Shown: in pieces, positions 1 to 342 of the stretch | Layout of the letters: each line of letters begins with the position of its first letter | Position numbering within the stretch: the first letter of the stretch is position 1 | Origin: Escherichia coli | Lineage (GTDB): Bacteria > Pseudomonadota > Gammaproteobacteria > Enterobacterales > Enterobacteriaceae | DNA length: 342 bases | NCBI RefSeq assembly: GCF_003334385.1 | Contig: NZ_QOWN01000197.1 | Direction: 5' to 3' (one strand) | Program-made: the position numbers and the translations under genes | The notes under the pieces: model-generated | The model's input: the letters and a program-made list of their open reading frames with translations, nothing else | What the model was told of the DNA's origin: nothing | The model's database searches: none

Positions 1-1
1 A

Positions 2-127
2 GAGCAGGCGATGTTTACCAAAGGTCTGGAAATTCATGTCAGACAGCGCACGATGAAAAAAGAGATTGAAGCGCTGGATGATGCGGAAGCTATACTGGCG
101 TATAAAATCGGTATCACAGACGGCTGA
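2..127 (+). CDS. 3' end of a protein-coding gene, 5'-partial (alternatively a 38-codon small ORF if the in-frame ATG at 11-13 is the true start); product not recognised
   Basis: Frame 2 is the only + frame open across 2-127 (frame 1 stops at TGA 67-69, frame 3 at TGA 54-56). Translation: EQA-MFTKGLEIHVRQRTMKKEIEALDDAEAILAYKIGITDG, then tandem in-frame stops TGA(125-127) TAA(128-130). Codon choice looks enterobacterial (CTG, GCG, GAA, AAA, ATT common). There is no convincing Shine-Dalgarno in the 10 nt before ATG 11 (agagcaggcg), so the frame most likely enters from upstream of the window. Confidence 0.55.
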   Translation, partial: EQAMFTKGLEIHVRQRTMKKEIEALDDAEAILAYKIGITDG

Positions 128-128
128 T

Positions 129-158
129 AAAAAAGAGAGGGGCAAGCCATAGCCCCTT
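129..158 (-). terminator. Weaker terminator-like hairpin in minus-strand orientation (second or backup terminator, or 3' end of a short minus-strand transcript)
   Basis: Stem 137-143 (gaggggc) pairing with 152-158 (gcccctt), including one G:U pair, 8-nt loop aagccata. An alternative register is gcaag 142-146 with cttgc 156-160. On the minus strand the stem is followed by TC then TTTTTT (complement of + strand A-tract 129-134). No T-tract follows it on the + strand. Confidence 0.45.
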
Positions 159-219
159 GCTACAAATCTACAGCTAAATAATACCCTGGTTGAGGCAAAT
201 TATTCGGTAATAAAAATTT

Positions 220-241
220 AAGGAGGCACAATAGCCTCCTT
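220..241. repeat. Perfect 8-bp inverted repeat AAGGAGGC-N6-GCCTCCTT (stem-loop); function unknown, contains a consensus Shine-Dalgarno-like motif
   Basis: 220-227 aaggaggc is the exact reverse complement of 234-241 gcctcctt, with 6-nt spacer acaata (228-233). Because it is a palindrome, the motif AAGGAGGC is presented on both strands. The minus strand has AAA TTTTT immediately 3' of the stem (complement of 211-219); the + strand has no T-tract after it. Confidence 0.8.
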
Positions 242-257
242 CACCCCTGTCAAAGAT

Positions 258-284
258 AAAAAACCGGGGAGTGCGTGCTCCCCG
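258..284 (-). terminator. Rho-independent (intrinsic) terminator for a minus-strand transcript
   Basis: 7-bp GC-rich stem, 265-271 (cggggag) pairing with 278-284 (ctccccg), six G:C pairs, 6-nt loop tgcgtg (272-277). On the minus strand the stem is followed by G then TTTTTT (complement of the + strand A-tract 258-263) and ATCTTT. On the + strand no T-tract follows the stem, so it is unidirectional. Confidence 0.75.
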
Positions 285-315
285 AGAGCATGATACTTGT
301 GGTTGATAGTTATTT

Positions 316-342
316 TTATCCGGCGACAAAGATATTGAGATG
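316..342 (-). CDS. Possible 3' end of a minus-strand protein-coding gene (only 8 sense codons plus stop in the window); product unknown
   Basis: Minus-strand frame reads CAT CTC AAT ATC TTT GTC GCC GGA TAA (…HLNIFVAG-stop), with the stop at + coordinates 316-318. The stop lies 31 nt upstream of the strong minus-strand terminator stem at 284, the expected gene-end layout. The other two minus frames are also open here, so the frame is chosen from position relative to the terminator, not from coding statistics. Confidence 0.3.
   Translation of the reverse strand, partial: HLNIFVAG

Follow-up and report, generated by a model that had tools for sequence, protein, structure and literature searches.

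Among the closest described systems are the tandem terminators of phage lambda, reportedly described by Luk and Szybalski in 1982–83, which include the t'J sites beyond J and the tL2 cluster. In the moron model of Juhala and Hendrix, cargo genes equipped with their own promoter and terminator are said to be inserted beside tail-fibre genes. A further system is IpeX, a prophage small RNA that arises by processing of phage porin transcripts at their 3' end (DLP12 nmpC; PMC12197685). The stretch of DNA analyzed here (342 nt, hereafter the window) comprises the 3' end of tfa, the last gene of a prophage late/tail operon, and the first part of the spacer before eib, a cargo gene, and carries two copies of the 9-nt sequence GATAAAAAA. 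We consider it likely that these copies are the U-tract tails of evolutionarily unrelated leftward intrinsic (Rho-independent) terminators stacked between tfa and eib, and that their identity is coincidental.

The window was 99.7% identical to a lambdoid prophage in E. coli JNEC-KY176, and similar sequence was found in only 27 of 5426 complete E. coli genomes. The tfa gene was assigned from the ORF at 11–127 and from the RefSeq/GenBank annotation of identical or near-identical loci; its stop codon TGA (125–127) is followed by an in-frame TAA (128–130). The rest of the window is the first 215 nt of the tfa–eib spacer (approximately 680 nt, and approximately 800 nt in longer alleles), which ends at eib, encoding a YadA-like immunoglobulin-binding adhesin. 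The genes orf-156, orf-60, and eaa (autotransporter) follow 3' of eib, all on the plus strand, and together with eib they make up a block of cargo genes inserted after tfa. The prophage adjoins potB, and the host genes potA–potB, which lie on the window's minus strand, are oriented into the prophage. In a sequence that includes the host flank (L128 19892–22342), the prophage was observed directly after potA–potB, with a YkgJ-family gene between; thus, the truncated pot operon would be transcribed toward the prophage, antisense to eaa and eib. The accessible eibG literature contains no mention of a promoter, a terminator, or the sequence upstream of eib. The features discussed below are as follows (window positions; L numbers denote compared sequences).

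1–127, plus strand: 3' end of tfa (tail-fibre assembly gene), encoding a DUF4376 protein; orf-191A of prophage P-EibA.
126–134, plus strand: copy 1 of GATAAAAAA, made up of the GA that ends the tfa stop and TAAAAAA; read on the minus strand, the T1 tail TTTTTTATC.
138–157, minus strand: T1 hairpin, AGGGGC / 8-nt loop / GCCCCT, with CTC between the stem and T6; a leftward terminator candidate abutting the tfa stop.
210–241 (stem-loop 220–241), minus strand: T2 hairpin, AAGGAGGC / 6-nt loop / GCCTCCTT, then AAATTTTTAT.
252–342, minus strand: 3' two-thirds of unit A, non-coding, with the T3 hairpin and T-run at its 3' end.
255–263, plus strand: copy 2 of GATAAAAAA; its minus-strand complement supplies the T-run that follows the T3 stem.
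264–285, minus strand: T3 hairpin, CCGGGGAG / 6-nt loop / CTCCCCGG, directly followed by T6; a leftward terminator candidate that closes unit A on its 3' side.
313–320, plus strand: TTTTTATC, an inverted copy of the 8-mer GATAAAAA; read on the minus strand, it is an A-run inside unit A.
Right of the window, minus strand: the box of the unit, also written CTACGAAAATTCTG.

A terminator scan identified three sites in the window, all on the minus strand, compared with 0.3 expected in shuffled sequences. As the two GATAAAAAA copies each precede a GC-rich stem when read on the plus strand, the minus strand reads a hairpin and then T6. The predicted folds of T1, T2, and T3 each formed the stem-loop of an intrinsic terminator, and a U-tract was found where the T3 stem is directly followed by T6 and where the T1 stem is followed by CTC and T6. 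Sixteen homologues from genomes, phages, and viral contigs were aligned, and two alleles were distinguished for window 106–235. This segment, which contains T1 and T2, was only 66% identical between the alleles compared with 99–100% in its flanks; thus, T1/T2 and T3 have different histories. T1 has 6 bp (5 GC) with a fold of −12.6 kcal/mol, and its stem AGGGGC/GCCCCT is the same in both alleles, while its loop and flanks differ. T3 has 8 bp (6 GC) with a fold of −14.3 kcal/mol (z −2.55). T2 has 8 bp, with a fold of −16.8 kcal/mol in the window's allele and −9.5 kcal/mol in allele 2. Its tail AAATTTTTAT is weak as a U-tract, and allele 2 reads TAATTATCATT at this place; as the T-run is lost there, T2 is a weak or allele-specific terminator candidate. 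From these properties, we infer that T1, T2, and T3 are ordinary intrinsic-terminator candidates.

The initial annotation had reported GATAAAAAA at 126–134 and again at 255–263, and exactly two plus-strand copies were present in the window. The stem said to follow each copy immediately on the 3' side was found for copy 2 (stem 264–285), and not for copy 1, where GAG (135–137) intervenes. The observation that two minus-strand terminator candidates share the tail TTTTTTATC was reproduced, both being a GC-rich hairpin followed by T6. In the window's allele, copy 1 is composed of the GA of the TGA stop, the in-frame TAA, and the A-run. Only allele 1 has this copy; allele 2 has TGAAAAAAAG after the tfa stop and therefore lacks it. 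Copy 2 was kept in all 16 aligned homologues.

Two copies of GATAAAAAA specifically were obtained in none of 200 shuffles. The fair chance test, however, is for any repeated 9-mer and not for GATAAAAAA in particular, and at least one repeated 9-mer of any kind was present in 21.5% of 5000 dinucleotide-preserving shuffles of the window. Eight occurrences of the tail TTTTTTATC were counted in 100 kb of the same genome, several of them behind other hairpins (e.g., after serA), and ATC followed 18 of the 394 T-runs of at least five bases in 100 kb of that genome, where it is among the commonest triplets. The window contains three A6 runs. A second direct repeat, AAAAAAGAGA (10 nt, at 56–65 and 129–138), involves an A6 run, as GATAAAAAA does, and a further direct repeat, CAAAGATA (8 nt), is located at 251–258 and 327–334. 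The 9-nt identity of the two terminator tails looks like chance and is an unremarkable coincidence. This was the explanation favored in the initial annotation, and it was supported by the absence of any likeness past the 9-mer and by neither module being over-represented. A short exact repeat between the T1 and T3 tails is an ordinary finding; its significance is small, and a special explanation is unnecessary.

The location of GATAAAAAA next to tail-fibre and tfa genes would also suit an invertible segment, as such segments sit next to these genes in Mu, P1, and e14. GATAAAAAA(CC) could then be a protein-binding or recombination motif, for example a half-site of a Hin/Gin/Cin/Pin-type invertase, and GGTTTTTTATC resembles GGTTTTTGATAA, which we take to be the hix half-site. 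An invertase crossover site has 26 bp with two inverted 12-bp half-sites and an invertase gene nearby. In the window, copy 2 is followed on its 3' side by GGGGAGTGCG rather than by an inverted half-site, and no dyad was found beside either copy; copy 1 is missing in allele 2, no invertase gene was found in the 16 kb around the window, and all 16 homologues had the same orientation, with no inverted alleles. We give this explanation almost no credence.

In the preferred reading, the two tails belong to unrelated terminators. For T1, we surveyed 80 loci encoding relatives of the DUF4376 protein, of which 67 extended 120 nt or more past the stop, giving 23 distinct downstream sequences. In 17 of these 23, a terminator-like hairpin on the minus strand began no more than 45 nt from the stop, and the usual layout 3' of tfa relatives was a stop codon, an A-run, and a GC hairpin. 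Terminator calls on the plus strand were made in this interval in 8 of the 23 and mostly represented one hairpin read both ways. In P-EibC, the spacer of which is otherwise unrelated, CAGATAAAAATATGGGGGAAA...TTTCCC is present at the position of T1. Judged by this survey, T1 is one case of a positionally recurrent, putative leftward terminator at the tail-operon end. Such a predicted terminator abutting the stop would be a recurrent mark of the tail-operon end in the DUF4376 tfa family and may help in annotating prophages.

T3 is part of a different element. The full unit that ends in T3 (approximately 130–175 nt) has the box CTACGAAAAWTCTGYA on its 5' side, outside the window; an AT-rich middle part and ATCATGCTCTC follow, and the T3 hairpin comes before the T-run. 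Two nhmmer unit profiles matched the window at 341→253 (E 4e-20) and 340→252 (E 3e-19). The longer alleles contain an extra 117–120 nt just beyond the window, with a fourth minus-strand terminator candidate (T4), and carry the word ATACAGAATTTTCGTA twice at a spacing of 177 nt. Full-length alignment of unit A (box to T3) with unit B (box to T4) gave z values of 9.0 and 5.8 (p < 0.001); by this alignment, units A and B are tandem paralogues.

The 117–120-nt indel (L003 6349–6468, after the window-equivalent position of approximately 350) separates the long and short alleles of the tfa–eib spacer. It contains T4 and a perfect 9-bp palindrome, ATGCAATAC-AGAATTTTC-GTATTGCAT. The deletion end shows a GAT/GAT microhomology, with the 5' part of unit B fused to the 3' part of unit A. 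In one allele class, T4 is decayed to GGGGAGACGACAGA--CCCAG.

Units A and B lie upstream of eib in divergent orientation to it, and the diverged copies found outside eib prophages, in two other E. coli island contexts, were single. One of these (L104 2995–3140) is located next to ulaD in an integrase/IS1/IS91 island of E. coli DETEC-P1056, and the other (L250 1565–1715; also L302) is located in metagenome contigs downstream of an OmpC-like porin gene; a diverged copy was also seen in L224. The unit profile matched L104 with E 4e-33 and L250 with E 8e-35, both of which are among the sequences from which the profile was built. Both copies were observed 170–330 nt upstream of a same-strand lipoprotein gene (DUF4092-type signal ...LLTSC). 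The stem GGGGAG/CTCCCC was kept in the four unit lineages (decayed in one unit-B allele), while the loop was changed in each. A-runs were present in unit B, L104, and L250 at the position aligned to window 313–320. After the T-run, the unit lineages read ATC, CGC/CAC, CTTATC, and GCTTTATG; as only unit A has ATC directly after the T-run, this triplet is private to unit A.

For six unit copies, RNAalifold predicted the terminator hairpin as the sole shared structure, with no covariation. The substitution C281A (L001 8281) breaks a central G–C pair of the T3 stem in 5 of the 16 homologues and is uncompensated; together with the decay of T4 in one allele class, this makes selection on the hairpins look loose. 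Searches against Rfam 15 gave no match at E ≤ 1 in the window and only noise (E ≥ 3.9) for the whole long spacer. The eib upstream region carries a conserved, duplicated non-coding unit that apparently was not described before and may likewise help in annotating prophages. A tentative and rather unlikely idea is that this unit represents a new small-RNA family carried by prophages or islands, perhaps tied to the expression of surface-protein genes nearby; even then, the GATAAAAAA repeat would remain coincidental. The duplicated unit ending in T3 is the one item that might repay experiment, as a small RNA or a regulator of eib.

The minus-strand hairpins could also be explained without termination if they lay inside a gene for a small protein or, read on the plus strand, stabilized the 3' end of the late mRNA. 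An 84-aa minus-strand ORF with a hydrophobic stretch (L001 8472→8218) does read through T3 and T2, a 46-aa version of it stops just before T4 in the long alleles, and the indel length of 117 or 120 nt is a multiple of three. The 84-aa ORF was, however, broken or changed by 2-nt indels and wholly different in the PhiR5_2 allele class, and allele 2 did not retain its C-terminus. Units A and B have the conserved box in different reading frames, and a search of 5.8 billion proteins with the minus-strand ORF retrieved two near-identical fragments and no family. On the plus strand, each hairpin is preceded by an A-run and none is followed by a T-run, an asymmetry that points to the minus strand. We regard both the coding and the plus-strand explanations as very improbable.

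T1 and T3 were also compared directly. The initial annotation had allowed for a local duplication or a shared sequence family behind the repeat; this does not hold for the T1–T3 pair, and it does hold for T3 alone, which has the tandem paralogue T4 and diverged copies elsewhere. When the two hairpin-plus-tail segments were aligned, as the initial annotation had proposed, the likeness stopped at the 9-mer, as expected under the chance reading: strict local alignment of the T1 and T3 segments recovered the 9-mer TTTTTTATC alone. Permissive alignment gave z values of 0.8–3.1 depending on the allele and partner, and these values are inflated because mononucleotide shuffles were used on T-rich sequence.

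As tandem duplication did occur at the eib locus (units A and B), the T1 segment (126–254) might be a third, strongly decayed tandem copy that inherited the shared TTTTTTATC tail. The permissive alignment of T1 with T3 in the window's allele (z 3.1, p 0.003), with the scattered words CTNAA.AT.TTT, TCAACCA, and GTAT.AT, is consistent with this explanation. The signal weakened, however, when allele 2 (z 1.3 and 1.1) or unit B (z 0.8) was used instead, and two versions of the unit profile gave no nhmmer match at E ≤ 10 to window 126–254 on the minus strand. The layout of T1 is common to many unrelated tfa downstream regions. Moreover, the other units lack ATC after the T-run and T1 in allele 2 lacks GATA; therefore, the exact 9-mer is not ancestral to both. 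A third copy is thus improbable. We conclude from the alignments that T1 and T3 are not detectably related, with a small residual probability that the two segments share a very ancient ancestor.

Motif searches across genomes, which the initial annotation had proposed for detecting a dispersed repeat, revealed no dispersed repeat family and no over-representation of the T1 and T3 modules. The modules were found at 70–71 places in 27–28 of 5426 complete E. coli genomes, only at eib loci apart from one diverged unit copy. The plasmids searched gave no match to either module, and the matches in metagenomes were mostly further eib loci. Among 100,044 species representatives, CCGAGAGCATGATNNTTGT had 20 matches, all by chance in unrelated taxa and none a homologue. 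In viral contigs, the box pattern ATNCAGAATTTTCGTA retrieved 95 stretches, of which ten were eib loci and the others had no BLAST match to the spacer, and CTCCCCGAGAGCATGAT retrieved three new loci, of which the two inspected (L105 and L106) were chance coding matches in GC-rich phages.

The distribution bears on another explanation, in which GATAAAAAA marks the ends of a dispersed repeat or small mobile element (REP/BIME-like or MITE) with termini at 112–133 and 313–334. An imperfect 22-nt inverted repeat at these positions (I1, 73% complementary) brackets the three hairpins, and the T3 unit is present in two other contexts. REP, BIME, ERIC, and MITE-like elements occur in many scattered copies, whereas the present sequences were confined to eib loci in 27–28 of 5426 genomes. 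The left arm of I1 is in the coding end of tfa and is altered in allele 2; thus, I1 is probably a chance structure built on A/T runs. No target-site duplications were found, and no allele lacked the block between the I1 arms. We therefore consider a mobile element extremely unlikely.

In the preferred reading, the spacer from tfa, the last gene of the tail operon, to the cargo gene eib would hold a stack of three leftward terminators (four in the longer alleles). T1 would be a generic end-of-tfa terminator, the GAT in its shared tail arising from the TGA stop plus a T. T3 would be the terminator of the separate non-coding unit of approximately 130–175 nt that travels with the eib upstream region. 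RNA polymerase moving leftward would transcribe the GC-rich hairpin, then the U6 tract, and release. This mechanism was inferred from the anatomy of the spacer and from the recurrence in the survey of tfa downstream sequences. As tfa and eib are both on the plus strand, there is no annotated leftward gene for the terminators to end, and this is where the preferred reading is weakest. The polymerase may come from a weak promoter within the tfa–eib spacer, from spurious antisense initiation in the AT-rich cargo, or from host transcription reading in from potAB; if it came from a spacer promoter, the units would be small RNAs. The stack would keep leftward transcripts from running antisense into the tail genes.

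One minus-strand promoter-like site was found in the spacer (L001 8544→8516), with a 9/12 match that was no better than in shuffles. A 13-nt inverted repeat, ATCAGATTGTGCT / AGCACAATTTGAT (92% complementary), was observed at L001 8477–8489 and 8504–8516, its right arm adjoining this sole promoter-like site. In six aligned sequences, the inverted repeat was invariant and the promoter-like site varied at one base. The inverted repeat could be an operator or a 5' stem-loop.

Further upstream features of eib were noted. Some alleles (L005 at approximately 2579–2600; also L062, L073, L078, and L079) carry an 11-nt tandem duplication, TTCAATGGTCA. A stem-loop is annotated approximately 100 nt upstream of eibA (L001 8668–8705, corresponding to AF151091 3777–3814; GGAAATTCCGAA...TTCGGAATTTC). 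It shares the word AAAATTC(G/T)G with the box of the unit, and the repeat finder reported the two as a 74% inverted repeat.

Of the known systems, IpeX was compared with the T3 unit, prompted by the porin context in L250 and the shared word TACGAAAAA. Both are prophage-borne, approximately 150–170 nt long, with a GGGG..CCCC hairpin followed by a T-run and TACGAAAAA near the 5' end. They differ in that the porin gene in L250 is followed by its own, separate terminator-like hairpin, and the unit lies approximately 330 nt further on. Homology to IpeX was rejected, as the unit HMM matched nothing at E ≤ 10 in the K-12 nmpC downstream region; pairwise comparisons of IpeX with the units gave z values from −1.3 to 3.6, with one of four tests marginal. 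An Rfam search of the K-12 IpeX region also gave no match, and neither IpeX nor the T3 unit is in Rfam. The prophage to which the window belongs also has an ompC-like porin gene inserted among its tail genes (L128 37851–39005); the region of approximately 200 nt 3' of this gene (L128 37642–37850) ends with GGGGCGCGTCTGCGCCCC and TTTTTTATG and resembles the porin-downstream sequence of L250.

T1 and T3 resemble the intrinsic terminators of E. coli and coliphages in their GC-rich stems of 6–8 bp, loops of 6–8 nt, and T6 within 0–3 nt. The lambda tfa–ea47 spacer was tried as a model and rejected, since its long hairpin lacks a T-run and the same scan makes no call in it. As in the lambda tandem clusters, several terminator candidates lie in tandem at a lambdoid operon boundary; unlike those clusters, T1–T3 are predicted from sequence and are all leftward, against both neighbouring genes. 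The likeness to morons lies in the eib–orf-156–orf-60–eaa cargo after tfa and in mosaicism that switches at the hairpins. The classic moron terminator is located downstream of the cargo on the same strand, whereas T1–T3 are located upstream of the cargo on the opposite strand. The mosaic structure of the tfa–eib spacer, as read from the aligned alleles, fits lambdoid moron boundaries.
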